This document shows, in pieces, positions 8,152 to 30,968 of a DNA stretch of 36,660 bases. A model generated the notes under the pieces. The model searched no databases. It was given only the letters and a program-made list of their open reading frames with translations, and was not told the origin of the DNA. The stretch lies in the sequence record SRR2962707_774; one strand, given 5' to 3'. A program made the position numbers and the translations under genes. Numbering within the stretch: position 1 is the stretch's first letter; each line of letters opens with the position of its first letter.

Positions 8152-8736
8152 ATGGAAATACGTATGGGCTGCGCGGCCGATACCGACAATCTGGTCAGGT
8201 ATCTGTTGATGGCTGGCGAAGGAATTTTCGAGCACCTCTTCGACGATGCCTATCCGGGTCTCACGGCACGTGACGCGCTTGCACTCGGCGTGGGCGACGA
8301 AACAAGCCCTTACCATTTCGAAAATGCGTATCTCGTCGAAGCGGAGAATGGCGCGGTCGGATGCCTTGTCGCGTTTCCTTCCGAAGAGCTCGGTCTGCCG
8401 GAAATCGTCTACAGTGTGCTGCCCAAGGAACGGATCGACCCGGCGCGGCCACTTTTTGAGCAGCGTGTCCCGGACAGTTTCTACATCAACACCCTGGCTG
8501 TGGATGAAGCGGCGCGCGGGCGGGGCGTGGGGACGCTGTTGCTGGACTTTGCGTCCGAACTCGCTCGCAGTTCAGGTTGCGACAGTCTCACCTTGCATGC
8601 ATGGGGTGACAACGAACCGGCACTTGCCCTCTATCGGTCTCACGGATTTCAGGAACTTGAGAAAATACATCTTCCCAAGACACCCGCACTGGCGCATGAC
8701 GCGCCAATGCTCCTGCTGAAATGCCCTCTCGCGTGA
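8152..8736 (+). CDS. GNAT family N-acetyl/acyltransferase
   Basis: FYINTLAVDEAARGRGVGTLLL (acetyl-CoA motif A) and NEPALALYRSHGF (motif B); SD GAGGAG upstream. Confidence 0.9.
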   Translation: MEIRMGCAADTDNLVRYLLMAGEGIFEHLFDDAYPGLTARDALALGVGDETSPYHFENAYLVEAENGAVGCLVAFPSEELGLPEIVYSVLPKERIDPARPLFEQRVPDSFYINTLAVDEAARGRGVGTLLLDFASELARSSGCDSLTLHAWGDNEPALALYRSHGFQELEKIHLPKTPALAHDAPMLLLKCPLA

Positions 8737-9551
8737 CCACGATGAAGCGGGAAGATAAAACCGCGCCGGCAGTCATCGTCATTACCGGGGCGGGTGGCGG
8801 TATAGGCGCGGCACTGTCGCGCGCATATGCGGCGCCGGGCGTTCATCTCGGCCTCCTGGGCCGAAACGAAGCCGTACTTGAGAGTATCGCGGGGGAATGC
8901 CGAAGCCTTGGCGCGTCCGCCGAGGTGTTGATCGCGGACGTATCCGAACCGGATGTCGTTGAACGGCTGCTGGAATTCGATGCGCGTTATCCCGTGGACC
9001 TGTTGATCGTCGGGGCCGGTGTTACCTCAGGTATTCCCGGCCCACACTGCATGGAGCCGTGGGAGAGCGCCGAGCACGTCTTGCAGACCAATTTCACCGG
9101 GGCCATCCGGACGATTGCACCGGTTGCCGCCCGGATGGCAGAGCGTGGGCACGGCCGGATCGCAGTTATCGGCTCGCTGGCGGCCCTGACGCCGCTTCCG
9201 TTCAGCCCCGCCTATAGCGCGGCAAAAACGGGTCTGAATGCATACGCCGTAGCTCTTGGACGGTTGCTTGCGCTCAAGGGCGTGCGGTTCACGGTCGTGA
9301 ACCTGGGCTATGTGGACACAGCGATGAGCCGGAAGCTGAGCGGCACCAAGCTGTTCATAACGACGCCGGAAAAGGCTGCTCAGGTGATAAGGCGAGGATT
9401 GGACCGCGGCCGGGCTTATGTGAGCTATCCTGTTGTATTGGCAACAGGAATTCGTCTTCTGAACCTGCTGCCCGAGCCCGTTGTACGCTTGATCCTTCCC
9501 TTCTTTGCTTTTACGCTTTCGGGCCGGGAAGCTGATGGCGGGGGCGTCTGA
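8733..9551 (+). CDS. wcbP: Short-chain dehydrogenase/reductase, WcbP/RkpH-like
   Basis: ITGAGGGIG Rossmann motif, catalytic S...YSAAK and GYVDTAMS; context next to wcbQ/kpsS-like genes; GTG 8733 overlaps the GNAT stop (GTGA). Confidence 0.78.
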   Translation: MTTMKREDKTAPAVIVITGAGGGIGAALSRAYAAPGVHLGLLGRNEAVLESIAGECRSLGASAEVLIADVSEPDVVERLLEFDARYPVDLLIVGAGVTSGIPGPHCMEPWESAEHVLQTNFTGAIRTIAPVAARMAERGHGRIAVIGSLAALTPLPFSPAYSAAKTGLNAYAVALGRLLALKGVRFTVVNLGYVDTAMSRKLSGTKLFITTPEKAAQVIRRGLDRGRAYVSYPVVLATGIRLLNLLPEPVVRLILPFFAFTLSGREADGGGV

Positions 9552-9577
9552 GTGAACGCAGCTTCCACAAGGAGCAG

Positions 9578-11182
9578 GTGATGTTGGGCGGTCTTGCGGG
9601 ATTTTTTACTGCATTTCTCGCAGTGCTCGTGCTTGAGCGGTTCGCCGAACCGGGCCATCCCGAACGGCCTATCCTGCACCGCATGAGCCTGCTGGCGGCG
9701 ATGCCGCTCATTCTCTTCTATTTGTCTGTGTTCATGGCCACCTACAGGCCGCTTTTCGCCACGCTTTTCACCATCATCGTCTTCCTCGGCATTGTGGTCG
9801 TCAACAATGCCAAGGTGCGTGAATTGAAAGAGCCTCTGGTCTATTCCGACTTCGCGCTGCTGCGTCAGGCCATCGAACATCCAGGGCTCTATGTGACCTA
9901 TATCGGTCCTTTCAAAGTGGCCGCGGTCCTTCTGTCGGGCAGCGCGACCATCCTCGCTTGTTTTGTGTTCGAACCCCCCGTGGTCCAGCGCGATACCGCC
10001 GCTGAATGGATCGCACCGCTCGCCTATTTTCTGGTTTTCTTTGGAGCCATCTACGCGATTACCCGCGGGCCTCTCCGAAATGAATTCAGGGAAATACTGA
10101 AGAAATTCGGTGCTTCGACCGATATCCGCGAGGATGTCGATAAACTCAGTCTCGTCATCTCGCTCATCTTCTATTTTCTTCTGGCTGGAGAGCAGGGCGA
10201 AGCTGTTGCCGTATCCGAACGAAACGAGCGTGAAGACCGGTCACGGTTACTGAAGGATGGCACCTCGCGTCCCGCCGTCGTGGTGGTTCAGAGCGAGTCA
10301 TTCTTCGACGCTCGTCGCATCATGACCAGCGTGCCGAAGGGCTTTCTTGCCGAATTCGATCGGATGGCGGGCAATGCCCGGTATGCCGGGCGGCTTCGTG
10401 TGCCCGCCTGGGGTGCAAATACGCTGAGGACGGAGTTCGCTTTCTTGTCAGGAATTCCCGACGAGGCGCTCGGCGTTGACCGTTTCAACCCCTACCTCAA
10501 ATACTGCAACAAGCCCGTGTGGACCGTTGCGTCTTACTTTCAGAGCATCGGATACAGGACGGTATGCATTCACCCGTTCCACAAATCTTTTTTCAGAAGG
10601 AACAGGGTTTATCCATATCTCGGATTCGACGAATTCATAGATATCTCGGAGTTCAATACTTCCGACAAGCTGGGGGCTTATGTCTCGGATGCCGCAGTAA
10701 CGCGGAAGATCGAGGAAAAGTTGAACGACGGCGACCGTCCTCTCTTTATTTTCGCGATCACAATGGAAAATCACGGGCCGTGGCGCGCGCAACGGATCGA
10801 CGTGCCGGACAAGTTGCTGGAGGCGACGCCAAAAAAAGCCAGAAATGTCGCGCAGTATCTCGCTCATCTGGCCAATGCTGGAGCGATGATAGGACGCTTG
10901 CGTCAGGTGCTCAAAAAGCAGGAAGAGGGCGGGATATTCTGTTTTTACGGCGATCATCTTCCAGGGTTCTCGAAATTCTTTAACTCGATCGGAATGAACG
11001 ATCCCAGAACGGATTATTTCATCTGGCACACCGGCACGCGCGATGTGAAGCAGCGCGCGAATGTGAGCGCCGACGGGGTCAATCGCATGATCTTGGAAAC
11101 CTTCATGTCGGTCGCGGCGAACGGAAAGCCGGACGCCGTGCGAAGTGACTTGCCCCAGTCTGCTGCGGGGAAAAATACATGA
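9578..11182 (+). CDS. wcbQ: LTA synthase/alkaline-phosphatase superfamily membrane protein, WcbQ/RkpI-like
   Basis: Several N-terminal TM segments; K..LKEPLVYSDF, QSESFFD, WGANTLRTEF (Thr nucleophile position), TMENHGPW and YGDHLP; SD AAGGAG upstream. Confidence 0.82.
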   Translation: MMLGGLAGFFTAFLAVLVLERFAEPGHPERPILHRMSLLAAMPLILFYLSVFMATYRPLFATLFTIIVFLGIVVVNNAKVRELKEPLVYSDFALLRQAIEHPGLYVTYIGPFKVAAVLLSGSATILACFVFEPPVVQRDTAAEWIAPLAYFLVFFGAIYAITRGPLRNEFREILKKFGASTDIREDVDKLSLVISLIFYFLLAGEQGEAVAVSERNEREDRSRLLKDGTSRPAVVVVQSESFFDARRIMTSVPKGFLAEFDRMAGNARYAGRLRVPAWGANTLRTEFAFLSGIPDEALGVDRFNPYLKYCNKPVWTVASYFQSIGYRTVCIHPFHKSFFRRNRVYPYLGFDEFIDISEFNTSDKLGAYVSDAAVTRKIEEKLNDGDRPLFIFAITMENHGPWRAQRIDVPDKLLEATPKKARNVAQYLAHLANAGAMIGRLRQVLKKQEEGGIFCFYGDHLPGFSKFFNSIGMNDPRTDYFIWHTGTRDVKQRANVSADGVNRMILETFMSVAANGKPDAVRSDLPQSAAGKNT

Positions 11183-12489
11183 AACGTGTTTTCCTGTTTC
11201 TTCAGGGAAGCAGCTGCCACTTCTTTCCGGCGTTGGGCAAGGCGCTGGCAGAGCGCGGCTATGGCGTTCGCCGGATAAATGCGAGCGGCGGAGACTGGTA
11301 TTTCTGGCGCGATTGGAACGCGGTCGACTACAAGGGCGACCCGGCGGATTTCGGCGCGTTTGTGAAATCGAAAATCCAGTCCGACGGCGTTACAGACATT
11401 GTTCTTTATAATGATTGCAGGCCTCTCCACAGGTTTGGTATCGAGGCTGCACGTAGCCGGGGATGCCGCGTCTGGGTCTTCGAAGAAGGTTACTTGAGGC
11501 CCTATTGGCTTACGTTGGAAGAAGGCGGCGTCAACGGACACTCCTCGCTAATTCACGAAGCCGGACGGTCTTGTTTCGAGGCGATTGAGGATCGGGATAA
11601 CGATAACGAGATATTGTACACCCCTACATCTTCCGCCTTGTTCTGGCGTGTTCTCTATGACTTTCAGTGGCAGGGCTGGAATTACCTTCTGCACTTTCGG
11701 TACCCGCGCTACAAGACGCATCGCCCGTTTCCGATCTGGGCGGAGTACGCAACCTGGGCGATGCGGCTCGCGAAGTTGCCCTTGTCTCGCCGTCGCGCCG
11801 CCGAAACGATTGACGGACTGGTTCGGTCCGAAGCGAGCTATTACGTTTTCCCCATGCAGCTCGAAAGCGACTCGCAGGTGGTTGCCCATTCTGATTTCTC
11901 AGGTATGGAACAGGCGCTGGAAAGTGCAATACAGAGTTTTGCCAACCATGCGCCGAATGGCACGCAATTCGTCGTCAAGCTGCATCCCATGGATAACGGC
12001 TGGATCAATTTCCGTCGCATAACGGGCGAGCTGGCGGCACGATACGGAGTGGCCGATCGCGTTGTCTATATCGATGGCGGAAATCTCGATACGCTGATCG
12101 ATGGTTCGCAGGGTATTGTCACCCTGAACAGCACCGTCGGTCTCTCCGCACTGAAACGAGGCAAGCCGGTGATTTGTCTGGCCAAGGCCGTGTTCAACCT
12201 TCCCGGGCTGACTTTTCAGGGCGGACTTGACAGTTTCTGGGTAGAAAAATCCCCGCCCGACAACGCATTGTTGCGGGGTTTCCTTGCTTATTTGATGAAG
12301 CACGCGCTTATTGTCGGTGATTTTTATACCTCTGAAGGCGTGGCTCTTGCCGTGACGAACGCCATTGATAGATTTGAGCGCTTGGGACCGGAGGATACTC
12401 GGTTGGATCAAGACGGCGGGGAGCCGCAAGCGAGTGCTCACGACGGGGAACGTCGATTGAGCGTATCGGCGATGAGATCTGTGTCATGA
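11179..12489 (+). CDS. kpsS: Capsule biosynthesis beta-Kdo transferase KpsS/WcbO/RkpJ family (GT107-like)
   Basis: FLFLQG, VFEEGYLRPYWLTLEEGGVNGHS, PMQLESDSQ, VKLHPMD and TLNSTVGLSAL; ATGA overlap with upstream gene. Confidence 0.88.
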   Translation: MKRVFLFLQGSSCHFFPALGKALAERGYGVRRINASGGDWYFWRDWNAVDYKGDPADFGAFVKSKIQSDGVTDIVLYNDCRPLHRFGIEAARSRGCRVWVFEEGYLRPYWLTLEEGGVNGHSSLIHEAGRSCFEAIEDRDNDNEILYTPTSSALFWRVLYDFQWQGWNYLLHFRYPRYKTHRPFPIWAEYATWAMRLAKLPLSRRRAAETIDGLVRSEASYYVFPMQLESDSQVVAHSDFSGMEQALESAIQSFANHAPNGTQFVVKLHPMDNGWINFRRITGELAARYGVADRVVYIDGGNLDTLIDGSQGIVTLNSTVGLSALKRGKPVICLAKAVFNLPGLTFQGGLDSFWVEKSPPDNALLRGFLAYLMKHALIVGDFYTSEGVALAVTNAIDRFERLGPEDTRLDQDGGEPQASAHDGERRLSVSAMRSVS

Positions 12490-12526
12490 CGATGGTTCTT
12501 CTTGCCAGTACGGCCGGCCTTGTCCC

Positions 12527-14350
12527 GTGAGTGACACCCACTCGAAGCAACACGACATCGCCGGTCCGGCCGACGAGTTCTCGAAGCTCTTCGCAGCGGG
12601 AGATGAGAGCGGGGCGGTTGATGTCGCCATGGCGGCGTTGTCGTCCGGGGCTGCGTTCGCTCCCCCCTTTGAAAGCGTGTGGTGGCTTTGTGATGAACTG
12701 CGGCAACGCCGCCGGTTCCGGCTTGCCCTTCTGCTGCTTTTGCAAGCGGTTGATCGCGGCTATAGCGGCTGGCGCGCGCTTTATCTGAAGGGAACGCTTG
12801 AAGCGTTGAACAGGCGCATGCCCGAAGCCGCCGAAACGTTGAAGAAGGCCCTGAAACAATCTCCAGAAGACAAGCGAGCGGAAGTGGCGATCCTTCTTGC
12901 CCGGGTCAATGTCATTCGCGGTGACGATTTGGCTGCGCAGCTCCTTTTTCGAAAACATTCGACTATTCACGATCTGTCGCCACGTCTCGCCGACATTGCC
13001 GTCAAGGCCGCCTTCAGGTCAGGGAAGGAGGACGTTGCCCTCGCATGGGCGCGCCGATCCACAAACACCCATGGAACGACAGCGAAACGCGCTCGCATCC
13101 TGGCCCGCATATACATGGACCGGGCTGAGTGGGCGGAAGCCCGCAAAATTGCCGAAGAAGGGCTGAAGGCAGATAGCGGAAACGTTGAACTGAAGCGATT
13201 GATAGCGATCGCCCTTTTCCATGAGGGGCGCATCGTTCTTGCCATTACTCATCTGGAGCAGATTGCGGCTCCCGAAACCGATTGGACCGAAGGAAAGATC
13301 ATACTGTGCAAGTGCCTGATTACGGCAGGTCGTACACACGAAGCACAGAAGGTTTTCCGGTCGATTGAAGATGAGACCGGCTTCACCCATGAGATGATGT
13401 TTCTTCGATCTCGTTTGGGCCAGGACGGCGTTGCGCCTGATGGAAACCCGGCAAAGACGCGTGATCGCCGCAAGAAGGACCCTCTGGAGGATCCCGAAGT
13501 CCGGCACATTCTGTCGAATATACCCGACGATTTCGTTCCGAGCTGGACGCCGGAAGCAGTATCGAAGAGTGGCAACATTCCCCGCGCAATCGGGAAGCTC
13601 TTTCATTCGGTTCGCACGATAATGCTGCGGGAGACGATGGCGCGGTTCGGCAGACACGAAATGGGCTATTTGTGGGCGATCATCGAGCCTCTGATACACG
13701 TCGCCGTTGTGTCGTGCATTTTCTACTTTATTCGTGCGCGCGATACGCTCGGAATGAACGTGGTCCTGTTCGTGGCGACCGGTGTGATCCCGCTCTTTTT
13801 CTACATGAAGACCTATTCCGGGCTCACCAATATACTGAAACAGAACCGTCCCTTGCTGAATCATCCCGGCGTTCAGCCCATGGATATCTTTCTGGCAAGA
13901 AGCATACTGGAATTCTTCACCCAGATTTTTGTCTTCATTATATTTGTCATCGCGATCTACTTGTTTGTCGAGGAGTATACATTCGGCAATGTGTGGTCGG
14001 TGCTGACCAATGTGTTCGGCCTATGGATCACCGGCATCGGGATGGGGCTGTTCATCGGCTCTATCGTCGTGTTCGCGGAGTCGATCAAGAATGTCATGGA
14101 CGGAACAAACAGGCTTATCTACATCACTTCGGGCGTTTTCTTCACGCTCGACATGATGCCCCAAGCCGTTGCGGAATATCTGAAGTGGAATCCATTGCTC
14201 CACTTTGTCGATGGAGTGCGCGGCAATTTCAACCCGTTGATGGGAGGGACGCGGGTCGATATCGGCTACGCATACATCTGGGCGGTTGCGATATTGTTCT
14301 GTGGCCTCGTCGCCGATCGCGCGCTGCGACACAAGGTTCTCGATAGATGA
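12527..14350 (+). CDS. kpsM: Capsule ABC transporter permease KpsM fused to an N-terminal ~300-aa TPR-like helical domain
   Basis: C-terminal ABC-2 permease motifs IMLRETMARFGRHEMGYLWAIIEPL, SGVFF and WNPLLH with ~6 TM segments; N-terminal TPR-like repeats (ALYLKGTLEALNRRMPEAAETLKKALKQSPED; ARIYMDRAEWAEARKIAEEGLKADSGN); continuous ORF. Confidence 0.85.
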   Translation: MSDTHSKQHDIAGPADEFSKLFAAGDESGAVDVAMAALSSGAAFAPPFESVWWLCDELRQRRRFRLALLLLLQAVDRGYSGWRALYLKGTLEALNRRMPEAAETLKKALKQSPEDKRAEVAILLARVNVIRGDDLAAQLLFRKHSTIHDLSPRLADIAVKAAFRSGKEDVALAWARRSTNTHGTTAKRARILARIYMDRAEWAEARKIAEEGLKADSGNVELKRLIAIALFHEGRIVLAITHLEQIAAPETDWTEGKIILCKCLITAGRTHEAQKVFRSIEDETGFTHEMMFLRSRLGQDGVAPDGNPAKTRDRRKKDPLEDPEVRHILSNIPDDFVPSWTPEAVSKSGNIPRAIGKLFHSVRTIMLRETMARFGRHEMGYLWAIIEPLIHVAVVSCIFYFIRARDTLGMNVVLFVATGVIPLFFYMKTYSGLTNILKQNRPLLNHPGVQPMDIFLARSILEFFTQIFVFIIFVIAIYLFVEEYTFGNVWSVLTNVFGLWITGIGMGLFIGSIVVFAESIKNVMDGTNRLIYITSGVFFTLDMMPQAVAEYLKWNPLLHFVDGVRGNFNPLMGGTRVDIGYAYIWAVAILFCGLVADRALRHKVLDR

Positions 14351-15003
14351 TCCACCTGATCGGAGTCGAAAAACACTACAAAACCGAAGTCGGCATCAGA
14401 CAGGTGATCCGCGAAACGAACCTTTCGATTCCAACGAACAAGCGCGTAGGGGTTCTCGGCCGAAACGGTGCCGGGAAAACGACATTGCTGAATATGGTGG
14501 CAGGTGTCGATCAGCCCAACCACGGAATGATCTTGCGCCACGCCCATTTGTCCTGGCCTTTGGGGTTTGCCGGCGGGTTTCACGGTGATCTGACAGCTCG
14601 CGAAAACATATCGTTTGTGGCGCGGCTTTACGATGTTGACTATGACAAGACGTTCGCTCTTACGGAGGAATTCGCCGAGATCGGGGCTTATGTCGATATG
14701 CCTGTCCGCACTTACAGTCAGGGCATGAAATCCAGGCTTGCATTCGGGCTCAGTCTGGCAATCGATTTTGACTGTTATCTTATCGACGAAACGATTGGCG
14801 CCGGGGATCGCTTCTTCAGACAAAAATCGCGTGCAGTATTTCTCGAACAATCGAAAGGGGCAGGTATGCTCTTGGTTTCGCACAATGAAACGACGGTAAG
14901 GGAGTATTGCGAAATCGCGTTGGTCATCTATGAGGGAGTGTTGGTTCCTTTTAGCGACGTCGACGAAGCGATCGACTTTTATATGCGGAAATGCGCTCCA
15001 TGA
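14347..15003 (+). CDS. kpsT: Capsule ABC transporter ATP-binding protein
   Basis: Walker A GRNGAGKTT, SWPLGF.GGF, signature YSQGMKSRL, Walker B YLIDE and VSH; 218 aa. Confidence 0.92.
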   Translation: MIHLIGVEKHYKTEVGIRQVIRETNLSIPTNKRVGVLGRNGAGKTTLLNMVAGVDQPNHGMILRHAHLSWPLGFAGGFHGDLTARENISFVARLYDVDYDKTFALTEEFAEIGAYVDMPVRTYSQGMKSRLAFGLSLAIDFDCYLIDETIGAGDRFFRQKSRAVFLEQSKGAGMLLVSHNETTVREYCEIALVIYEGVLVPFSDVDEAIDFYMRKCAP

Positions 15004-16226
15004 GCCCAAGATTTGACAGAGACCGGCTGGCGAGAATTGTGCGGGAGGACGGTCCTGCAGGGAGGGCGATCCTCTTTTGGAAAGAGCGTGCGATGCCCCT
15101 CCTCAAGGAGCGGCTGCTGCCCATTCTCGGGCTGGGTGTTTCCAAACTCCTCTTCATCGCACTGGTGATATTTCCTTCAGCTCTTGCGGCCGTGTACTTC
15201 GGTCTTTGGGCATCCGACCGATACGTATCCACCACGCTGATGACGGTTCGCACGTCGGACTCGCAGATTGCTTCCGCCTTTACTGGATTGCTGGGTTCGC
15301 TTGGCGGGCAGACCGGTCTGGTCGACGGGTACGTCGTTGAGGAATACATCCAGTCGCACGAGATCGCGCGAAAACTTCAGGAGTCGATCGATCTAAGGGC
15401 GATCTATTCGGTCGAAGAGGCAGACTATTGGTCGAGGCTCGACGCGGACGTGACCTTCGAGGACTTCTTCAGCTATTACCAAAGCCGTATAGACATCTAT
15501 TTCGATTCCGAAGCCAACGTCGTTCATCTCGATGTTCAGGCCTACAGGCCCGAGGATGCACGGAACATAGCGGCGGCAATCGTCAAGCTCAGCGATGACA
15601 TGGTGAACCGCATCTCCGAGCAATCCCGCAGCGATGCCGTCAAGTTCGCCGCCGAAGAAGTGACGCTTGCCGAAAACAGGCTTCGGGATAATCGCCTTAC
15701 CCTGTACCGTTTCCGGGAAGAACATGGGGAGCTTGATCCCGTGCGCTCTGCCGAAGCGATCGGCGGTATTGTTTCGAAGCTTGAAGAAGAGCTGGCAAGA
15801 TACAAGACCGAGCTGGCATCCCTGCGCAGCTATATGCGCGAAGACAGTGCGCAGATCGCAGGCGTGAAGGCGCGGATCGGTGCCATTGAGCAGCAGCTCC
15901 GCTCGGAGCGGGGGCGCCTCACCAGCAGCCCGGACGATCCGGCGACGACTTTTTCGGATGTGCTCGCCGACTACGAACGTCTTCTCATCGAGGAGGAGTT
16001 CGCGAGATCGGCCTACACTTCGGCTGTGTCGGCCCTGGAGATCGCGCGCGCCGATGCCGCGCGCAAACAGGCCTATCTGGTCGCTTTCGTCGAGCCGTCC
16101 CTGCCGGACGCGGCATCGAAACCCGACAGATTGCTGATTGTCGTCTCCGTTGTGGCATGTGGCCTGTTGGCATTCGGCCTGCTAATGTTGATCGGGGCAG
16201 CCATTAAGGAGCATGCGCGGATATGA
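15000..16226 (+). CDS. kpsE: Capsule export inner-membrane co-polymerase (PCP-3)
   Basis: N-terminal TM followed by ASDRYVS, EYIQS, periplasmic coiled coil, YLVAFVEPSLPD..P.R and C-terminal TM ending IKEH; ATG 15000 overlaps kpsT stop (alternative ATG at 15093). Confidence 0.88.
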   Translation: MSPRFDRDRLARIVREDGPAGRAILFWKERAMPLLKERLLPILGLGVSKLLFIALVIFPSALAAVYFGLWASDRYVSTTLMTVRTSDSQIASAFTGLLGSLGGQTGLVDGYVVEEYIQSHEIARKLQESIDLRAIYSVEEADYWSRLDADVTFEDFFSYYQSRIDIYFDSEANVVHLDVQAYRPEDARNIAAAIVKLSDDMVNRISEQSRSDAVKFAAEEVTLAENRLRDNRLTLYRFREEHGELDPVRSAEAIGGIVSKLEEELARYKTELASLRSYMREDSAQIAGVKARIGAIEQQLRSERGRLTSSPDDPATTFSDVLADYERLLIEEEFARSAYTSAVSALEIARADAARKQAYLVAFVEPSLPDAASKPDRLLIVVSVVACGLLAFGLLMLIGAAIKEHARI

Positions 16227-17989: not shown

Positions 17990-18004
17990 AGCATCCGGGA
18001 GGAC

Positions 18005-19054: not shown

Positions 19055-19148
19055 CAGCGGCGCTTTCTGTGGTAGAGTTGGCCCCGTCGTCGCCAAGTTT
19101 CTTCGTCTCTGACGACAAGTCTATATCCGTTTCAGGGGAAGGCGATCC

Positions 19149-19478
19149 ATGCACCGGCTGGTTCTCATATTGGCGTTGAGCATCGGTCTCGCAGCTTGCG
19201 AGACAGCTCCTTCAAACCAGGCGGCTTCTCTTGCGGAGACAGCCACCCCGGTCGCATCGGATGCCGTAGCGCGCTATGCGGTTGAAGCTTCGGCGGGCGC
19301 CTCCGCTCCGGTGATGTCCAAGAGCGGGTCCAACGTCACAGTGCAGGTAGGTTCCTACTATACCTCGGCGTTGGGAGAGCGGTGTCGGCGTATCGTTCTG
19401 TCGGACGGCTTTGGCCGTTCGCAGGTCAGCGCTGTCTGCCTGGTGGACAATGGCTGGACGACGGTCGTCGGTCTCTAG
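19149..19478 (+). CDS. Small lipoprotein, DVU3141/17-kDa surface antigen-like
   Basis: Lipobox LAAC after a hydrophobic signal; YTSALGERCRR and a second Cys in AVC; SD GGAAGG upstream. Confidence 0.72.
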   Translation: MHRLVLILALSIGLAACETAPSNQAASLAETATPVASDAVARYAVEASAGASAPVMSKSGSNVTVQVGSYYTSALGERCRRIVLSDGFGRSQVSAVCLVDNGWTTVVGL

Positions 19479-19479
19479 A

Positions 19480-20850: not shown

Positions 20851-23800
20851 GTGCCGAACTGCGTTGCAATGCTGGATTTTTCATCTGCCGGCTCCGCTCG
20901 CCTGGCATTCTCTATATCGCTGTCGTTTACATGACGAGAGATGATCGTGTCCACATTTTGTAAAAGTTCGTCGGATGAGTCCGCGTCCTCGTCCCTGATC
21001 TGCATGACAATCTGGCGCGAGAGTGTGGTGAGGCTGCCACCTTCGGAAAGGGCCATGACGGGGATTTCGATGCGGAATCTGTCTTCGATGCCAAGCTTGA
21101 GTTCGAGGGCCATCAAGGAGTCCATGCCAAGATCGAATATGGACTTGCTCGTGTCGATCTTGTCCGTTGTCAGGCGCAGCACCAAGCCGATCTCTTCAGC
21201 AAGAATGTGGGAAACATAGATCGCGCCTTCTTCCGTGGACATGCCTGCCAGATTTTCAAGAATATCGTCGTCACTTGTGTCTGCTCCCGCCCGCGCGGTG
21301 CCGGGCGCAACCTCCCGATAAGCAGGTTGCTGAAGGATGGGAAGTCCAGCGCGAAGGCGCTGCCAGTTGATTTCCCCGGCATAGAAATTTGTTTCGTCTT
21401 CTACGATCATCTCTTCAAGTTCAAGCAGGGCTTCTTCTGCTGTCATAAGAGCGTTGCCCATGCGCGCACTCAGTTGTTCGCGCAGCTTTTCATTTCGGGC
21501 GAGAAAGCCTGTGTCCGCGATCGCGCCCCAGCCTATTGCTTGCGCCGGAAGACCAGTGGCACGACGGTGTTGCGCCAGAGCTTCGAGAAACGAGTTCGCT
21601 GCAACGTAACTTGCTTGTCCCGGATTGCCGAACGCAGTGCCGATCGTTGAATAGAGTACGAAGAAGTCGAGAGCGCGCTCTGCTGTGGCTTTGTGCAGAG
21701 CCATCGCACCGAGAATCTTCGGCGCAACAACGCGCCGGTACTGGTCGGCTTCGACCCGCTCAATTGTCGCGTCGTCAAACACGGCGGCGGCGTGGACGAC
21801 GCCGCGTATGGGCGTTCCGGCCGCCTCTGCTTCCTCGAACAAGGCTTTCACGGCGTCTTCGTCAGTCACATCGCAGGCACGCGTAACGACGCTCACTCCC
21901 TGCGCCTCGAGTGCATCGATGATGTTTCGCGATTCGCCGTTTGCGGGGCGGCCGGATCGGCCCGCGAGAACCAGGTTTCGTGCGCCGCTGGAGGCGAGCC
22001 AACGCGCGGTTGCGAGGCCAAAGCCGGAAAGACCGCCCGTCACGAGATAGGACGCATCCGCTCGCGCGGCGAATTTGGTCCGGCGCTCTTCCGACGCGCT
22101 GACACCGCTCTGCGGCGGCCGGATCAATATCTTGCCGATGTGTCCCGATTTCTGCATGAGCCGGAAGGCATCAGATATCCGTGAAGCGTCAAAGACGCGG
22201 AAGGGAAGGGGAGTGTAAATGCCCTGCGTGAAGCGTTCGACCAAGCCGGCAAATATTTCTCTGGCGAGGTCCGGCTTCTCCTCCATGAGCTGATCCGCGT
22301 CGATACCGAAATAACTCAGATTGTTGCGGAAGAATTTAAGCCCGATCCGGCTGTTCTCGTAAAAGTCACGCTTCCCGAGTTCGAGAAAACGTCCAAACGG
22401 CCGCAAGATGGCAAGGTTGCGGTGGATTGCGTCACCCGCAAGCGAATTAAGAATGACGTCAACGCCCTCTCCGTCGGTCGCAGCAAGGATGTCGTCGGCA
22501 AACTGAAGCGAACGTGAGTCAAAAATGCGCCGCTCCGGTATACCAAGCTCCATCATCAGCGCGCGCTTCTCAGGGCTTCCCACTGTCACGAATATATCGG
22601 CACCCGCCTGCCGGGCGACCTGCAGAGCAGCGAGGCCTACGCCACCAGCCGCACCGTGAATGAGAAGACGCTCGCCTCGACGTAAACGGGCGAGGTAATC
22701 GAGAGAATACTGCGCGGTGAAGAAGGCTGTCGGAATGGTTGCGGCGTCTTCGAAGCTCAGATTGGCCGGCTTGTGAACGGCGGATGTGGTTTTGACGACA
22801 ACACGGCTGTCGAAACAATTGGGCGCAAAGAAAAGAACTTCATCGCCTGTCTTGAAGCCAGCGGCGTTTGCCCCGGCCGTTGTGACGACACCCGACGCTT
22901 CCATGCCCAGGCAGGCTCCTGCGAAGCCGTCTTCCAAGGCCTCGGCGGGCAACACACCGAGAGCAAACATAACGTCGCGAAAATTCAACCCTGCGGCACG
23001 CGGCGCGATCACGATTTCGTCTGGGCCTGGTTCAGGAGCCTGCGTTCTTTTCCACGCGAGTGAGCCAAGACGGCCACTGGTGAAAGTGAGTTTCTCAGCG
23101 GAAAGCCCGTTGCTCTCATTGTCACCAGGTGCAGGCCGTAAACGAGGTGCGAAAGCTCCGTCGGAACGGAGGATTATCTCGGCTTCCGCACCGTTTTCGA
23201 GGAGGACATGCGTCAAGCGGGTCATCATTTCTGCGGACGCAGTGTGGTTGCCTTGCAGATCAAGCAGGCGGGCCCGGATACGAGGAACCTCGTTGGCGAC
23301 GACGCGCCCGATACCCCACAACGGAGCCTGCACCAGGTTCGCGCATTTGTTTGGCTCGAAGCTCGCGGCGTTGCAGGTCACGATGTTAAGTCGTGGCGCA
23401 GATGCGAAGTCGACCTTGGACATTGCGCGGGCGGCGAGGAGCGCACTCCAGCCGGGCCGCTGGTCGGACGAAATGTCTCCGAACAGTACAACGCCCTCAA
23501 GCGGAACCTCTGCGTTTTGAACCATCTCATACATGTCGAGCCACTGCGCCTCGTCGTCGGCGTCGAGCGATATCGCGTCCGCAAGTTCTCCGTCACCGGA
23601 AACGTGCGCACGGATGACAAGCGCACCGCTACGCTCCATCGTGTCGCACAGTCTGTCCGCTCCGTCCGCATCCGGCTTCGCCGGATCGTAAACAACGAGC
23701 CAGCAGGTGCCGTCGGCGTCCGGCAAAGTATTTTCAAGAGAAATATCGGATGCGCGATCATGGTCCAAGTTGCCGTCTGCGATCAGAATGACAGTTTGCC

Positions 23801-26800
23801 CGCAGGCGACGGCCCGGGCGTTGCGATACCCGGCGCGCGTGAAGTGGTCACTGAACTGCTCTGCGGATGCCAGCGGTGAGGTTCCATCCGCTTGCCACCA
23901 ATGGCTGCGAGCTCCGAAGGCCACGTCCGCCCAGAAAGAAGGCAGTGGATTGGTGGCCATGACAACGCCGCCCGGAACCAGCAGGCTTCGAACGTTGTTA
24001 AGCAATGCCGTCGTCAGCCCGCATTCCACCGAGACCATCGGCATCACGATGAGATCGAATGCACCGATCTTCGCTAGATCGTTCTCGGAAAGAATGCCGG
24101 CAAGGTCTGTTTCGACAAACCGAACATCGGAGGAATCGATATCCCGTTCCAGCGCTGATATCCGTGCGCCGTCCGCACAGGTAACAGTGACATCGATTTC
24201 ACGCCGTGAAAGCAGATCGCGAACATCCCGGACCAGCGCATTTGCACAGCCGATTTCAAGAATGCGGAGACGGCGGGTTTCCGGCCATCCTTCGGCGAAC
24301 GTCGTGATTGAATCGCGCAGCAGCGCCCGTCCGGCCCCGTAACTCGGTGAGGAAGACAGAAGGTGGTCTGTCGTCGACGCTGACAGTTTGTCTCCGCCGC
24401 GCCACGACCCTTGGCGAAATGCCTGCGCCTCATAAAGAAGGGTCACAAGTTCGGAAAGATGATCGGGATACTTTGCAAAGGCCTCGTTCCAGAGAATCGC
24501 ACCACCTTCCCGGTCTTCACCGTTCGAATTCTCAACTGTCGTTGAGCGCAAACCGGCGAGCAATCCCGCAGGGAGCGCGGGTGCAATGGCCGTCTCCCGC
24601 ACGGAATCGCGGCCGGCTCCAGACAGGAGAGAGGCGGCAATCATGTCCAGCGGAGGAACCCCGTCAATAGTCCCTGCCGCCGCGCGTCCCTCAAGGTCGA
24701 GTGCATCCGCAATCAGGGCGGTGTTCGGTGCTGTATCTTTCGTGTTCCGGTAGTCGAGAGGAATAGTTTCGAAACGAAACCGCTTGCCGGTTGCTGTGTT
24801 CGCCTGCAATTCAGCAAGCATGAACCGAACGCCAGTCGCTTCCGCGATGCAGCGGCCTTCGCGATCGAAGAGCAGGAAATCCGCAACGAGGGACTTTTCC
24901 TTTCTCTTGCGCAGAACGGTACGGCAGCTTGAAACTTCGGCACGCGGTTGGAAGATTTTAAGGCGATTGATCTGATAGGGCAGATAGGCGTCAGCAGACC
25001 GTTCTCCTTTAGCGTAGATAAGGGAGAAGAGCGACTGGAGACACCCGTCCAGAAAACTCGGATGAAGGATGAACTGGTGCAGGCCTTGCTGTACGGCGTC
25101 GGGTGTCCGGAAAATGGCAATCGCGGTATCGCCGGAGACGCGGACAGCTTCCACAATCCGGAACGCAGGTCCGTACTCAAGACCGAGAGCCTCTGCAATG
25201 CCGTAGTGCTCGTCATGGTCAATTTCGGTTGCATCGCCGGATATATCCGACGAGCGTGATGCGCGATCTTTGTCGAAGTCCGGAAAGCTGAAACGCCCAA
25301 CGGCGTTCAGCGACCATCGGTCGTCACTCGCCCGACGCCTCGTCTCAATGCGAAATGCTTTGTCTTCCTCGTCATAGACGAAACGGAAATTCATGACCTG
25401 GTTGCGCGTCAGCACAATGGGTCGCCGAATTTCGAGCATCTCGATGTCGCCCGTTTCCTCGCCGAAAAGCGCCGCCGATGCCTCGAGCGCGCATTCCACA
25501 TACCCGGCTGCCGGAAACACGATCGCATTGCCGACATTGTGGTCGGCCAAAAAGCGAAACCGCTCGGTGTCGATTTGACCTTCCCAGGTCGCATGCGACG
25601 ATTGCGGACGAACGCCTATGAACGGCCCTTCGCTTCGCCGGTACATCGGCCCGACGGCCTCGGTGCTTGGCTTGAACCAATGAGGCTCGCGCTGCCATGG
25701 GTATCGCGGTAACTCTACACACCGCCCGCGAACGGGGAATGAAGAGGAGAGATCGACTGTTGCTCCGTTGCAGAAAGCCGCATCGACAGTTCGCTGGATA
25801 AGACGTGCGCCGGGCTCGCTTCGAGACATGCTGCCGAGCGGTGTGAAGTCGCTCTTTTCATCTCGCAGGATTTGTCTCAGATATGACGTTAGGACGGGGT
25901 GCGGACCGATCTCCACAAGCAGTTCTATGCCGTCATGCACCATTGCTCCGACAGCGTCCTTGAAGAGGACCGGCTTTCTTATGTTTTCCCACCAGTAGCC
26001 GGCGTCGAGTAAAAAGTCGTCCGTCACGCCCCCTCTCGCCGAGGAATAAAACGGAACTACCGGCATTCTTGCATTGAAGTGTCCGAGGAGGTGCAGGAAT
26101 TCGTCGCGCACAGGCTCAAGCGTGCGGCTATGGAAGGCATAATCAAGGTCGAGCAATCTGAAGAAAATACGTTCGACATCCAGCTCTCTCCCGAGCGTCT
26201 TGAGAGCATTTTCGTCGCCCGAGAATGTTACCGAGTTCGCGGCGTTGACCGCCGCCAGTTCGATCTTCCCTCCCGATGCTTCTTCGATAGAGCGGGCTCG
26301 TTCAGGCGAAACACCTGCCGCCGCCATGCGTCCCTTGCCATGCGTGAGCTTTTGGGCCTGAGACCGGGCGACAATCAACTGGGCAGCTTGCTGAAGATCG
26401 ATCGCGCCGGCCACATAGGCGGCTGCGACTTCGCCGACACTGTGCCCCGTAACTGCATCGGGCGTGAGGCCAGCATGCCTCAAGCAAGCCGCGATGCCGA
26501 TTTGCACTGCGAGGAGAGCGGGTTGTGCGATGTCGGTATGGCGAAGCTGTTCTTCACTATCTTCCGCGAACAACGTCGCGACAATTGACCAATTTGCAAT
26601 CCGCAGAACTTCGGCGTTGAGGCCGTCGACCTCCGCGCGAAACGTCTCGCTCTCCTGGTAGAGCTCTCGTCCCATGCCGGCCCATTGGGCGCCATTGCCA
26701 CTGAAGACAAACCCGGTCCGCGCGTTCGTTGCCTTTGTTTCGCCGAAGGTGCTGGTGCCGCCACCGGCACAAAAAGCATTGAGCTCGCTGGCGATGGCTG

Positions 26801-28319
26801 GCGCGTTCTTCCCCCGCGCGATCAGCCGGTGGGGCAATTGCTCCCGGCGATATGCGACAGTGTGTGCGGCGTCGTAATAGTCCCGTTCCGACATTCCATC
26901 GAGGAAGGTCCCCCATTTTCCGGCCGTGTCGCGAAGTGCGGAGGCAGACTTCGCCGAGAGAATGAGGGGCGGGGTAGGGGGTATCTGTGCTCGCAACGGA
27001 ATTTCCGTGCCGACATGCTCGCGCAAAATGACGGTGGCGTTTGCACCACCAAAACCAAATGAATTCACGCCTGCCATTATCGGGCTGCTCTTTGCCCTCA
27101 GGTGCGTCAGTTTTTGTACCGGTGAGATATTCAGCCCGCTGAAATCGATATTCGGATTCAGCGGTGTCGCATGGAGAGTTGCCGGTATAGCGCGATGCTT
27201 GATCGCCATAATCGTTTTGATGAGGCCGGCCATGCCCGACGCGGGTTCCAGATGTCCGATGTTGGACTTTGCGGAGCCCACAGGCAGCGGCCCGCTTTCC
27301 GGACGTCGGCGTTGACCAATTGCCTCACCGATGGCCCGGCTCTCGGCGGGATCGCCAACCGAGGTTCCGGTGCCATGCGCCTCGAAGAAATCGATCTCGG
27401 CCGGATCGATGTCGAATTTAGCCATCGTTTCTTCGATCAACGCGCGCTGGGTGGCATGCGATGGCAGCGCAATGCCGTTCGTGCGGCCATCGGCGTTGGT
27501 GCCGGAACCGCAGATTACAGCGTGGATTGGATCGCCGTCGCGTAGGGCGTCGGCCAGCGGCTTGATGGCGATGACGCCGCCTCCTTCGCCGCGCACATAC
27601 CCGCCGGGCTCTGCGCCGAATGCACGGCACAAGCCATAGTCCGACAACATCGTCGCCTTGGCGAAGCCTACAAAGGGCAGGGGCGTAAGCAACAAGCTGA
27701 TGCCGCCGACCAGCGCCATGTCGCAGCGTCCTGCCCAGAGCGCGTTTAGCGCCTCGTTGAGAGCCACCATGGCGGAAGAGCACGCGGTGTCGATCGCCAT
27801 GCTGGGGCCGCGCAAATCGAACTGATAGGAAAGCCTGTTGGCGGCAATCGACAGCGTTGCACCCAGCATCAGGTAGGCGTTCATCGCCTCCGGATCGTTC
27901 TGCTGGATGGAGCCATATTCGGTGGAGGAAATGCCGACATAAACCGCGCAATTTCGGCCTTCCAGCCGGCTTGGAATTTGTCCCCCCGACTCGATCGCTT
28001 CCCATGCCATTTCGAGCAGCAGGCGCTGCTGCGGGTCCATCGCGTCCGCCTCGCGGCGCGAGATCCCGAAGAAGGCTGCGTCAAAGCCGCGTATGTCGTC
28101 GAGAACGCCTGCTGCGAAAGTGTAGGAGCGGCCCGGGACGCGCTTGCTGGGATGGCTGAGGATGTCCTTGTCCCACCTGTCGGCGGGAATTTCAGTCACA
28201 GCGTTCCGTCCCCCGGCCAGAAGCTCCCAATAAGCCTCGGGAGTATCGCAGCCTCCGGGAAATCGGCAGGCCATTCCGATGACGGCCATGTCGGTTCGCT
28301 TGATGCCGGGAACCCTCAT
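20847..28319 (-). CDS. wcbR: Single-module reducing type I PKS, WcbR/RkpA-like (KS-AT-DH-pseudoMT-ER-KR-ACP), no thioesterase
   Basis: KS DTACSS, EAHGTGT and KSNIGHLE; AT GHSVG and YAFHS; DH HNVGNAIVFP and LDGCLQ; MT-like ILEIGC; ER LIHGAAGGVG; KR VTGGLSGFG, VFDD and GQASYVAAN; ACP LGMDSLM. Confidence 0.93.
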   Translation of the reverse strand: MRVPGIKRTDMAVIGMACRFPGGCDTPEAYWELLAGGRNAVTEIPADRWDKDILSHPSKRVPGRSYTFAAGVLDDIRGFDAAFFGISRREADAMDPQQRLLLEMAWEAIESGGQIPSRLEGRNCAVYVGISSTEYGSIQQNDPEAMNAYLMLGATLSIAANRLSYQFDLRGPSMAIDTACSSAMVALNEALNALWAGRCDMALVGGISLLLTPLPFVGFAKATMLSDYGLCRAFGAEPGGYVRGEGGGVIAIKPLADALRDGDPIHAVICGSGTNADGRTNGIALPSHATQRALIEETMAKFDIDPAEIDFFEAHGTGTSVGDPAESRAIGEAIGQRRRPESGPLPVGSAKSNIGHLEPASGMAGLIKTIMAIKHRAIPATLHATPLNPNIDFSGLNISPVQKLTHLRAKSSPIMAGVNSFGFGGANATVILREHVGTEIPLRAQIPPTPPLILSAKSASALRDTAGKWGTFLDGMSERDYYDAAHTVAYRREQLPHRLIARGKNAPAIASELNAFCAGGGTSTFGETKATNARTGFVFSGNGAQWAGMGRELYQESETFRAEVDGLNAEVLRIANWSIVATLFAEDSEEQLRHTDIAQPALLAVQIGIAACLRHAGLTPDAVTGHSVGEVAAAYVAGAIDLQQAAQLIVARSQAQKLTHGKGRMAAAGVSPERARSIEEASGGKIELAAVNAANSVTFSGDENALKTLGRELDVERIFFRLLDLDYAFHSRTLEPVRDEFLHLLGHFNARMPVVPFYSSARGGVTDDFLLDAGYWWENIRKPVLFKDAVGAMVHDGIELLVEIGPHPVLTSYLRQILRDEKSDFTPLGSMSRSEPGARLIQRTVDAAFCNGATVDLSSSFPVRGRCVELPRYPWQREPHWFKPSTEAVGPMYRRSEGPFIGVRPQSSHATWEGQIDTERFRFLADHNVGNAIVFPAAGYVECALEASAALFGEETGDIEMLEIRRPIVLTRNQVMNFRFVYDEEDKAFRIETRRRASDDRWSLNAVGRFSFPDFDKDRASRSSDISGDATEIDHDEHYGIAEALGLEYGPAFRIVEAVRVSGDTAIAIFRTPDAVQQGLHQFILHPSFLDGCLQSLFSLIYAKGERSADAYLPYQINRLKIFQPRAEVSSCRTVLRKRKEKSLVADFLLFDREGRCIAEATGVRFMLAELQANTATGKRFRFETIPLDYRNTKDTAPNTALIADALDLEGRAAAGTIDGVPPLDMIAASLLSGAGRDSVRETAIAPALPAGLLAGLRSTTVENSNGEDREGGAILWNEAFAKYPDHLSELVTLLYEAQAFRQGSWRGGDKLSASTTDHLLSSSPSYGAGRALLRDSITTFAEGWPETRRLRILEIGCANALVRDVRDLLSRREIDVTVTCADGARISALERDIDSSDVRFVETDLAGILSENDLAKIGAFDLIVMPMVSVECGLTTALLNNVRSLLVPGGVVMATNPLPSFWADVAFGARSHWWQADGTSPLASAEQFSDHFTRAGYRNARAVACGQTVILIADGNLDHDRASDISLENTLPDADGTCWLVVYDPAKPDADGADRLCDTMERSGALVIRAHVSGDGELADAISLDADDEAQWLDMYEMVQNAEVPLEGVVLFGDISSDQRPGWSALLAARAMSKVDFASAPRLNIVTCNAASFEPNKCANLVQAPLWGIGRVVANEVPRIRARLLDLQGNHTASAEMMTRLTHVLLENGAEAEIILRSDGAFAPRLRPAPGDNESNGLSAEKLTFTSGRLGSLAWKRTQAPEPGPDEIVIAPRAAGLNFRDVMFALGVLPAEALEDGFAGACLGMEASGVVTTAGANAAGFKTGDEVLFFAPNCFDSRVVVKTTSAVHKPANLSFEDAATIPTAFFTAQYSLDYLARLRRGERLLIHGAAGGVGLAALQVARQAGADIFVTVGSPEKRALMMELGIPERRIFDSRSLQFADDILAATDGEGVDVILNSLAGDAIHRNLAILRPFGRFLELGKRDFYENSRIGLKFFRNNLSYFGIDADQLMEEKPDLAREIFAGLVERFTQGIYTPLPFRVFDASRISDAFRLMQKSGHIGKILIRPPQSGVSASEERRTKFAARADASYLVTGGLSGFGLATARWLASSGARNLVLAGRSGRPANGESRNIIDALEAQGVSVVTRACDVTDEDAVKALFEEAEAAGTPIRGVVHAAAVFDDATIERVEADQYRRVVAPKILGAMALHKATAERALDFFVLYSTIGTAFGNPGQASYVAANSFLEALAQHRRATGLPAQAIGWGAIADTGFLARNEKLREQLSARMGNALMTAEEALLELEEMIVEDETNFYAGEINWQRLRAGLPILQQPAYREVAPGTARAGADTSDDDILENLAGMSTEEGAIYVSHILAEEIGLVLRLTTDKIDTSKSIFDLGMDSLMALELKLGIEDRFRIEIPVMALSEGGSLTTLSRQIVMQIRDEDADSSDELLQNVDTIISRHVNDSDIENARRAEPADEKSSIATQFGT

Positions 28320-30844: not shown

Positions 30845-30930
30845 GGGAAAGTCTTTCTGTTAGGGTTTTCAAGGCTGCGAGGCGGTCTTTTGGTGCGATC
30901 GCTCAATCGCAGGCCGAGTGGACGGACTGT

Positions 30931-30968
30931 TGTTTTATATGTAAATCATGACTAACATATATAAAACA
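30931..30968. promoter_or_regulatory. Putative operator in the fucD/iclR divergent promoter
   Basis: Perfect inverted repeat TGTTTTATAT (30931-40) N18 ATATAAAACA (30959-68); AT-rich island; similar to 31942-31976. Confidence 0.65.

Follow-up and report, generated by a model that had tools for sequence, protein, structure and literature searches.

Within a 36,660-nt stretch of DNA from sequence record SRR2962707_774 (hereafter the window, meaning the whole stretch that was analyzed, to which all coordinates refer) lies a gene for a small GNAT N-acyltransferase. It is set in what appears from its gene content to be a KpsMTED (ABC-transporter) capsule locus for a sulfated polysaccharide, equipped with a lipid module of the rkp-1/wcb/Sga type. 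The host is evidently a marine Parvibaculum-type (Parvibaculaceae-type) alphaproteobacterium, and the closest named relatives of the GNAT are Parvibaculum and Parvibaculaceae proteins with 66-89% identity. The core of the lipid module, a polyketide synthase (PKS), an alpha-oxoamine synthase (AOS), and a short-chain dehydrogenase/reductase (SDR), is no longer novel, given that homologues were characterized in 2025; the GNAT is the new element. A subclade of this GNAT is found next to the genes for the SDR and the membrane protein RkpI in several alphaproteobacterial lineages, and the best reading is that it acts on the amine of the lipid that primes the capsule. Genes were assigned from a listing of open reading frames (ORFs) together with Pfam and NCBIfam scans, which give the following features:

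1836-2675, minus strand: sulfotransferase (Pfam), glycan-specific
2829-5438, plus strand: fusion of GT2 and GT4 glycosyltransferases (Pfam), glycan-specific
5431-6228, plus strand: sulfotransferase (Pfam), glycan-specific
6280-8148, plus strand: GT2b, a glycosyltransferase of 622 aa (Pfam), glycan-specific
8152-8736, plus strand: GNAT N-acyltransferase, 194 aa (Pfam Acetyltransf_1, E 1.4e-14)
8721, 8733, or 8742 to 9551, plus strand: SDR of the RkpH/WcbP/SgaC type, a proposed 3-keto-sphinganine reductase (adh_short, E 2e-36)
9578-11182, plus strand: RkpI/WcbQ-type polytopic membrane protein of the Sulfatase/lipoteichoic acid (LTA)-synthase family (Sulfatase family, E 7.5e-32)
11179-12489, plus strand: KpsS-type beta-Kdo (3-deoxy-D-manno-octulosonic acid) transferase, RkpJ/WcbO (Capsule_synth, E 2.8e-80; 259 bits to the KpsS model, below its equivalog cut-off)
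12527-17989, plus strand: export genes for KpsM (12527-14350), KpsT, KpsE, and KpsD (Pfam, NCBIfam)
18005-19054, plus strand: GT1-family glycosyltransferase (Pfam), kept in Parvibaculum loci
19149-19478, plus strand: small lipoprotein-like DUF5061 protein (Pfam), kept in Parvibaculum loci
19480-20850, minus strand: AOS of the RkpG/WcbT/SgaB type, dependent on pyridoxal phosphate (PLP) and similar to serine palmitoyltransferase (SPT) (Aminotran_1_2, E 1.5e-46)
20847-28319, minus strand: type I PKS of the RkpA/WcbR/SgaA type, 2490 aa, iterative and fully reducing (Pfam domain order)
28566-29462, plus strand: Stf0-type sulfotransferase, divergent from the PKS gene (Pfam)

The plus strand forms one long operon from the GT2+GT4 fusion (2829) through the DUF5061 protein (19478), and the minus-strand PKS and AOS genes converge on it. 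The genes named in a first-pass annotation of this DNA were all recovered where it had placed them, and its assignment of the PKS, AOS, SDR, RkpI, and KpsS genes to an rkp-1/wcb set holds, with all five functions present. Both of the GTGA overlaps it described can also be seen. One joins the GTG start of the AOS gene to the TGA stop of the PKS gene (20850-20847), and in the other the GTG at 8733 of the SDR gene overlaps the TGA stop of the GNAT gene (8734-8736). The start of the SDR gene is ambiguous, however, with in-frame ATG codons at 8721 and 8742 equally possible, and under every option the two genes overlap or lie no more than 5 nt apart. On its other side, the GNAT gene starts 3 nt past the stop of GT2b (8148), so tight coupling alone cannot assign the GNAT to the lipid genes.

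Comparison across genomes provides the evidence that coupling cannot. The gene order GT2b-GNAT-SDR-RkpI-KpsS recurs in all 11 Parvibaculum-type loci that extend beyond the GNAT gene (a twelfth, L009, ends within it), and the arrangement is therefore not chance. GT2b is always kept in Parvibaculum loci, while the GT2+GT4 fusion and the sulfotransferases are not always kept. Because the whole operon is conserved in Parvibaculum, lipid and glycan genes cannot be told apart there, and a survey centered on RkpI, the most specific member of the module, was made for this reason. A profile built from 15 RkpI homologues matched 555 stretches in contigs representing one genome per species; the counts given here for RkpI loci come from the best 80 of the 555, with 10-kb flanks.

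The SDR gene adjoins RkpI in 73 of the 80 RkpI loci, and five of the seven exceptions are loci that start at RkpI. A window-type GNAT (30-88% identity) lies directly upstream of the SDR gene in eight Parvibaculum-type loci, and it holds the same position in Novispirillum (L038), a Rhodospirillaceae metagenome-assembled genome (MAG; L040), Magnetospirillum molischianum (L042), and two Sneathiella loci (L043 and L075). In Dongia (L041), where the SDR gene is not in view, it is directly upstream of RkpI. With L122, L132, L185, and L186, the non-Parvibaculum loci that have a window-type GNAT directly before the SDR or RkpI gene number ten. The upstream neighbor of the GNAT gene varies by lineage (GT2b, GT1, AOS, KpsD, a 514-aa protein, CysD on the other strand, or BipA), and the SDR/RkpI side is constant. 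In M. molischianum, the genes run PKS-AOS-GNAT-SDR-RkpI-KpsS on one strand. An unbiased sample of the class found RkpI in 8 of 301 genomes, and the GNAT was beside the SDR gene in three of those eight. Whether the GNAT clade travels with these genes had been left by the first-pass annotation to a synteny survey; a subclade does so, in several alphaproteobacterial lineages. A word-based search had found the gene only in Parvibaculum-type loci, and the resulting picture of a genus-restricted gene was overturned by the RkpI-centered survey and by a profile-based locus search.

Some of these loci hold additional genes around the GNAT and the SDR. A protein of ~512 aa directly upstream of the GNAT gene is shared by Dongia (L041, 7602-9146) and a Rhodospirillales MAG (L121, 6417-7952); the two copies are 35% identical (E 2e-76), have no Pfam match, and contain a GQxLxD stretch that was picked out by eye and is reminiscent of Kdo-transferase motifs. 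A large subtilase (Peptidase_S8, 800-935 aa) is encoded between SDR and RkpI in Novispirillum (L038, 7430-9835) and a relative (L185, 10955-13762). The GNAT on contig CBDDIJ010000006.1 (L012/L116), which was binned in a MAG under the label Candidatus Obscuribacterales, is identical to the one in a Parvibaculum MAG (L011/L117) and has the same synteny, and the contig is probably Parvibaculum DNA that was mis-binned.

A reciprocal search started from the GNAT. A profile of 11 linked GNATs matched 153 stretches, of which 80 were taken, and 77 of these were new loci. The rkp-type genes lie within 8 kb of the GNAT gene in 14 of the 77 and are not found in that range in the other 63 (Bradyrhizobium, Nitrobacter, Azospirillum, and others). 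In a maximum-likelihood tree of 85 rows, with L009 and L010 left out and three gammaproteobacterial GNATs as the outgroup, the linked rows fall in two well-supported clades, one from Sneathiella (4 of 4 linked) and one of 17 rows (15 linked). Sixty unlinked rows group apart in a clade of their own (SH-aLRT 88). Of the two exceptions in the 17-row clade, L119 is a 4.6-kb MAG contig, and another contig of the same MAG (L044) carries SDR-RkpI. The other, L121, has its GNAT among GT1/GT4 genes and a GINT1_N-like protein; a PKS-AOS-KpsS locus lies elsewhere in its genome, where the AOS shares 58% identity with that of the window, and no RkpI was found in that genome. The linkage thus belongs to a GNAT subclade and not to the whole family. 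The surroundings of the unlinked GNATs vary (CDP-alcohol phosphatidyltransferase, hydrolases, transporters, transposase) and give no consistent clue to substrate.

The GINT1_N-like protein of L121 (8627-10285, minus strand) matches the N-terminal domain of plant glucosamine inositolphosphorylceramide transferase (E 1.2e-29), a sphingolipid-glycosylating family.

The window-type GNAT is one of three N-acyl or N-formyl transferase families found at the module. A census compared 218 unassigned ORFs around the 80 RkpI loci with Pfam and was followed by tblastn searches. Window-type GNATs are present in 14 loci, Formyl_trans_N proteins in 13, and an unrelated GNAT in 2, and a window-type GNAT and a formyltransferase never occur together (0 of 80). 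The Formyl_trans_N proteins are ~250-330 aa long and are encoded directly downstream of the AOS gene on the same strand in all nine loci with both in view, with the ends of the two alignments 6-72 nt apart. They retain SAHFNQ, NIHPSLLP, and LDTG, which we take to be the Asn-His-Asp catalytic motifs of N10-formyl-tetrahydrofolate transferases, and their nearest solved structures are the Met-tRNA, sugar, and ArnA N-formyltransferases. The second GNAT, found in Pseudomonas (L078) and Azonexus (L071), is only ~20% identical to that of the window. It follows RkpI in all 15 loci found with it. Named Pseudomonas genomes, chiefly fluorescens-group ones, account for all but one of these loci, and 13 of the 15 also show AOS and PKS. 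At one further locus (L058), a protein with a 2-oxoacid_dh-type acyltransferase domain adjoins the AOS gene.

The AOS is in view in 35 of the RkpI loci, of which 12 have a window-type GNAT, 9 a formyltransferase, 1 the second GNAT, and 12 none of these, with 1 that could not be judged. The simplest reading is that the module makes an amine-bearing lipid that is diversified by optional tailoring enzymes. The repeated recruitment of N-acyl and N-formyl transferases is what points to the sphingoid amine as the acceptor. The first-pass annotation considered a GNAT to fall outside the described wcb/rkp-1 sets; none appears in the portions of those descriptions that were consulted, but N-acyltransferases at the module are not unique to the window, as the Pseudomonas GNAT and the formyltransferases illustrate.

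The lipid core itself has all of the gene-level features that define the rkp-1/wcb/Sga module: a single-module reducing PKS lacking a release domain, an SPT-like AOS directly downstream, and the SDR, the LTA-synthase-family protein, and KpsS together. Pfam places the ketosynthase (KS) domain of the PKS at residues 10-384, followed by AT (537-850), DH (905-1166), ER (1765-2066), KR (2089-2268), and the acyl carrier protein (ACP) domain (2373-2435). The protein begins directly with the KS domain, with no loading module recognized by Pfam. Residues 1334-1500 give a weak methyltransferase-like match (E ~1e-4) and are probably a pseudo-MT. Pfam found no thioesterase or reductase (R) domain after the ACP domain, and the protein stops 55 aa past it. 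Identity to the PKSs of other RkpI loci is 65-84% inside Parvibaculum and 33-47% outside. The AOS scores below the NCBIfam cut-offs of both the bioF and the SPT equivalogs, and its nearest solved structures are of Sphingobacterium SPT (3a2b/8guh, E 4e-70). It is 52-60% identical to the AOS proteins of 27 non-Parvibaculum RkpI loci, the single outlier being L063 with 42%.

That outlier, from a Legionella sp. MAG (L063, 2404-11440), has a fatty-acyl-AMP-ligase-type AMP-binding protein and a small ACP-like ORF in place of the PKS, followed by AOS, SDR, KpsS, a fatty-acid hydroxylase, and RkpI. Genes for PhyH-like dioxygenases (L057, L075, L084, L085, and L190) and FA_hydroxylase proteins (L063 and L190) recur in or beside the lipid module, which suggests hydroxylated variants of the sphingoid chain.

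The chemistry expected of the core comes from the homologous system of Pseudomonas fluorescens MYb115, the one strain in which the product and the serine preference are known. According to the published work, formation of C24, C26, and C28 sphinganines depends on both the PKS SgaA and the AOS SgaB, as does that of species 154 Da heavier that were assigned as phosphoglycerol sphingolipids (Peters et al. 2025, Nat Commun; PMC12134224). The same report describes SPT activity of purified SgaB with a near-exclusive preference for L-serine, proposes the neighboring SDR SgaC as the 3-keto-sphinganine reductase, and counts 6101 homologous clusters, mainly in Burkholderia (PMC12134224). Capsules, wcb, acetyltransferases, and phosphoglycerol transferases go unmentioned in its main text, as judged from a search for these terms.

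RkpI is the obvious candidate for adding the 154-Da phosphoglycerol head group. Among solved structures it comes closest to the phosphoglycerol transferase GacH (E 4e-22), with LtaS next, and residues E240, T282, D459, and H460 are invariant in the 15 homologues; at these positions LtaS has its metal ligands and Thr nucleophile. A Kyte-Doolittle scan finds five or six hydrophobic segments within residues 1-204, and Lys and Arg are enriched in the loops at 20-35 and 77-113 and past residue 163 (mean of the 15 homologues). This crude positive-inside count weakly suggests that the catalytic domain is cytoplasmic, a placement that would go well with the cytoplasmic KpsS as partner. There is no KpsC in the window, and each of the three related Parvibaculum genomes searched (those of L002, L005, and L011) has one Capsule_synth gene and no second match, so that KpsC seems to be missing from them. 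The poly-Kdo linker may consist of one Kdo, or a further enzyme, for instance the conserved 622-aa GT2b, may lengthen it.

The GNAT has the fold and the R/Q-x-x-G-x-G/A motif of its superfamily. An AlphaFold2 (AF2) model from a 70-sequence alignment has a pLDDT of 94.3 and a pTM of 0.90, and Foldseek relates it to many GNATs with a probability of 1.00. The CoA-binding motif R122-x-x-G125-x-G127 is conserved in the alignment, as are N154 and Y161. Both sequence profile and Foldseek give 1u6m and 4m85, structural-genomics GNATs without known function, as the closest matches; the next among solved structures are PaiA and arylalkylamine, diaminobutyrate, and N-terminal acetyltransferases. The NCBIfam scan gave weak RimI-, AAC-, and ArsN1-type matches below cut-offs and nothing related to ceramide, and neither sequence nor structure matches provided evidence for a long-chain acyl donor. 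A profile search of 1.84 billion representatives, which carry no genomic context, returned 132 GNAT clusters at E <= 1e-30 and 1216 at E <= 1e-10. Six longer matches were inspected for informative fusions and proved to be tandem GNATs or to have extensions without assignment.

Put together, these components suggest a route to the capsule anchor. By analogy with the characterized homologues, the PKS would iteratively build a very long saturated acyl-ACP, and the AOS would release the chain through decarboxylative condensation, with L-serine as the probable amino acid, to give 3-keto-sphinganine. The SDR would then reduce the 3-keto group to yield a very-long-chain sphinganine. RkpI is predicted to transfer sn-glycerol phosphate to the C1 hydroxyl, producing a single-chain phosphoglycerol sphingolipid that mimics lyso-phosphatidylglycerol, and KpsS to place the first Kdo on it. 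The glycosyltransferases and sulfotransferases would build the polymer, and KpsMTED would export it. As a lineage-specific tailoring step, the GNAT would N-acetylate the C2 amine. Judging from the ceramide pathway in which bCerS is described as working ahead of CerR (PMC11087976), its probable substrate is the unstable 3-keto-amine. The resulting anchor would be an N-acetyl (C2-dihydroceramide-like) phosphoglycerol sphingolipid, and in other lineages the same amine would be capped by a formyltransferase or a different GNAT.

The reading preferred here, in which the sphingoid amine of the capsule-priming lipid is the acceptor for the GNAT, best understood as N-acetylation to an N-acetylated phosphoglycerol-sphinganine, is given a probability of roughly 0.45. 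The ceramide-like product proposed in the first-pass annotation is borne out as far as sphinganine chemistry, which is established for the homologues (PMC12134224), while N-acetylation and the anchor role stay at the level of proposal. Its preference for acetyl over long-chain acyl transfer fits the 194-aa single domain and the small acetyltransferases that are its nearest structures. A small cap is favored further by the replacement of the GNAT in other lineages by a system with a one-carbon formyl donor.

Several observations weigh against this assignment. Twelve of the 35 loci that show the AOS have neither a GNAT nor a formyltransferase, so N-capping is not required for the module. RkpI was not found in three of four unlinked-clade genomes searched, and the fourth had only sulfatase-family matches of 26% identity; no rkpG-type AOS was found in any of the four, where the best matches had 35-37% identity. 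The GNAT family is therefore not intrinsically sphingolipid-specific. The linked and unlinked clades also share nearly all conserved residues. Only two positions, Y111/F and M186/S, discriminate between them; they yield no signature of specificity, and so few differences weigh against a highly specialized acceptor site. The GNAT of Parvibaculum is as tightly coupled to the upstream glycosyltransferase as to the SDR. LtaS and GacH act outside the membrane, opposite to the orientation predicted for RkpI. Finally, the MYb115 lipids bear no N-acetyl or N-formyl group as reported in the main text (PMC12134224), yet fluorescens-group loci carry a GNAT after RkpI.

An unlikely alternative, though the one that survives best, is that the GNAT works on the glycan side, N-acetylating an amino sugar, a nucleotide-sugar precursor, or a linker, and belongs with the glycosyltransferases. 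The 3-nt gap to GT2b would fit, as would the adjacency of the two genes in every Parvibaculum locus that shows the upstream side of the GNAT; in L121, the linked-clade GNAT sits among glycosyltransferase genes away from the PKS locus, and an N-acetylated lipid is unreported in the published account of the Pseudomonas system (PMC12134224). Yet Pfam identifies no sugar aminotransferase or amino-sugar gene among the window ORFs. Outside Parvibaculum it is the upstream neighbor that changes, and SDR or RkpI stays directly downstream. Parvibaculum loci without the GT2+GT4 fusion and the sulfotransferases still have the GNAT, and the formyltransferases of other lineages directly follow the AOS gene instead of lying among glycosyltransferases.

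It is distinctly unlikely that the GNAT is a general small-amine or protein acetyltransferase that detoxifies free sphingoid base or polyamines, or that is regulatory, with no part in the final anchor. Such a role would agree with nearest solved relatives that either lack a known function or are polyamine, arylalkylamine, and N-terminal acetyltransferases, with a sister clade in varied, unrelated contexts and in genomes without RkpI, and with the very few clade-specific residues. It does not account for a linkage that is specific to subclade and position across several orders, nor for the parallel recruitment of two further N-acyl/formyl transferase families to the same module.

Bacterial ceramide synthase of the Caulobacter type, bCerS, has a GNAT fold. 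That the window GNAT is likewise a true ceramide synthase, one that would load the sphingoid amine with a long chain from an acyl-CoA or acyl-ACP donor to give a two-chain anchor, is nonetheless improbable. The bacterial pathway is described as running from Spt through the acyltransferase bCerS to a reductase (PMC11087976), and the AOS-GNAT-SDR gene order of Magnetospirillum mirrors it. However, the GNAT is only 194 aa long, its weak NCBIfam matches were to nothing ceramide-related, its functional stand-in elsewhere is a formyltransferase that adds a one-carbon cap, and the base is already C24-C28 in the characterized system (PMC12134224). GNAT-type loading domains do occur in PKS systems, and the PKS here opens with its KS domain and no loading module, but a role in decarboxylating malonyl-ACP/CoA to acetyl for PKS priming, like the GNAT loading domain of CurA, is very improbable given that most RkpI/PKS loci lack any GNAT, that neither the 60 profile matches listed nor the solved structures listed by Foldseek include a CurA-type entry, and that the gene is coupled to the SDR and not to the PKS.

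A broader proposal joins N-acetylation by the window GNAT to what is seen in other lineages. It is offered tentatively, as possible but not probable: capsules of the rkp-1/wcb/Sga kind would be anchored on a purpose-built very-long-chain phosphoglycerol sphingolipid, made by the PKS, SPT-like AOS, SDR, and RkpI, and not on lyso-phosphatidylglycerol, with the amine capped in a lineage-specific way. The cap would be acetyl, added by the window-type GNAT, in Parvibaculales, Rhodospirillales, and Sneathiellales; acyl, added by the unrelated GNAT, in Pseudomonas; and formyl, added by the formyltransferase, in many gamma- and betaproteobacteria. Capping would turn a zwitterionic base into an anionic mimic of lyso-phosphatidylglycerol that KpsS could glycosylate.

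If true, this joint proposal would tie the Pseudomonas sphingolipids described in 2025 as secondary metabolites to the 30-year-old unsolved "lipid carrier" of rkp-1. What the rkp-1 and wcbPQRT genes produce has been an open question since the 1990s, and a 2025 paper on Cobetia notes that little is still known about these proteins (PMC11766843). In the window and its relatives, Sga-type enzymes share an operon with a homologue of phosphoglycerol transferases, with KpsS, and with a capsule exporter, and the three transferase families at the module lead to a concrete anchor structure. The value of the finding lies in this comparative pattern, which makes that structure directly testable. The textbook picture of how ABC-transporter capsules are lipidated would change for a large group of environmental, symbiotic, and host-associated proteobacteria.

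The glycan side of the locus has features of its own. Three sulfotransferases of different families (Sulfotransfer_1/3, Stf0) flank the locus, and given these genes the capsule is probably sulfated. No genes for synthesis of 3'-phosphoadenosine-5'-phosphosulfate (PAPS) are present in the window; CysD/CysN-type genes adjoin the module in related loci (L038, L039, L043, and L045). KpsM has a fused N-terminal region of ~350 aa with TPR repeats, a fusion that is kept in Parvibaculum loci with 52-74% identity. The DUF5061 protein resembles the 17-kDa common antigen and has an N-terminal hydrophobic segment; its gene lies between GT1 and AOS in Parvibaculum, and it is also found near the module in Sneathiella and a Rhodospirillaceae MAG. 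The remainder of the window (29558-36660) holds an unrelated cluster with two MR_MLE (enolase-superfamily) genes, an IclR regulator, an aldo-keto reductase, an amidohydrolase, an SDR, and an FAA-hydrolase, which looks like a sugar-acid catabolic cluster.

Among the closest known systems is Sga of MYb115, in which an iterative type I PKS likewise precedes an SPT-like AOS and a KDSR-like SDR is encoded close by. Loci of the Pseudomonas fluorescens group, compared here in place of the MYb115 sequences, have the same KpsS-SDR-RkpI block as the window and an AOS 52-56% identical to that of the window, and the phosphoglycerol head group of the Sga lipids agrees with the prediction for RkpI. Unlike Sga-type Pseudomonas, the window has the alphaproteobacterial order GNAT-SDR-RkpI-KpsS and a GNAT of a different family. 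Across the literature searched, which covered the main text of PMC12134224, nothing ties the Sga sphingolipids to capsule priming.

The same five functions, PKS, AOS, SDR, an LTA-synthase-like membrane protein, and KpsS, make up rkp-1 of Sinorhizobium meliloti (rkpA, G, H, I, and J) and wcbO-T of Burkholderia. These genes have long been proposed to make or modify an undefined capsule lipid carrier (PMC4881576, PMC11766843). The window differs in having a GNAT, as none is listed in the parts of those descriptions consulted, and the literature searched, which did not include the primary rkp papers, describes no GNAT or formyltransferase as part of the rkp-1/wcb/Sga sets. In capsules of the E. 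coli type, the natural terminus is the lyso form of phosphatidylglycerol. The available description of those systems has phosphatidylglycerol as the lipid terminus bearing a Kdo linker that is built by KpsS and KpsC (PMC13721041). The window departs from this group 2 KpsS/KpsC arrangement in having KpsS without KpsC.

With GacH and LtaS, RkpI shares the catalytic domain and the conserved Glu, Thr, and Asp-His positions; it differs in that its acceptor would be a lipid hydroxyl and not a glycan or a growing LTA chain, and in loop charges that weakly suggest the opposite membrane orientation. The likeness to the Spt-bCerS-CerR pathway of Caulobacter is one of chemical logic only: PLP-dependent condensation to an amino ketone, N-acylation, and reduction, as outlined for that pathway (PMC11087976). 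In the window, the acyl chain would come from a dedicated PKS and not from fatty-acid synthesis, the reductase is a classical SDR and not an NDUFA9-like CerR, and the GNAT, unlike bCerS, is small and probably uses acetyl-CoA.

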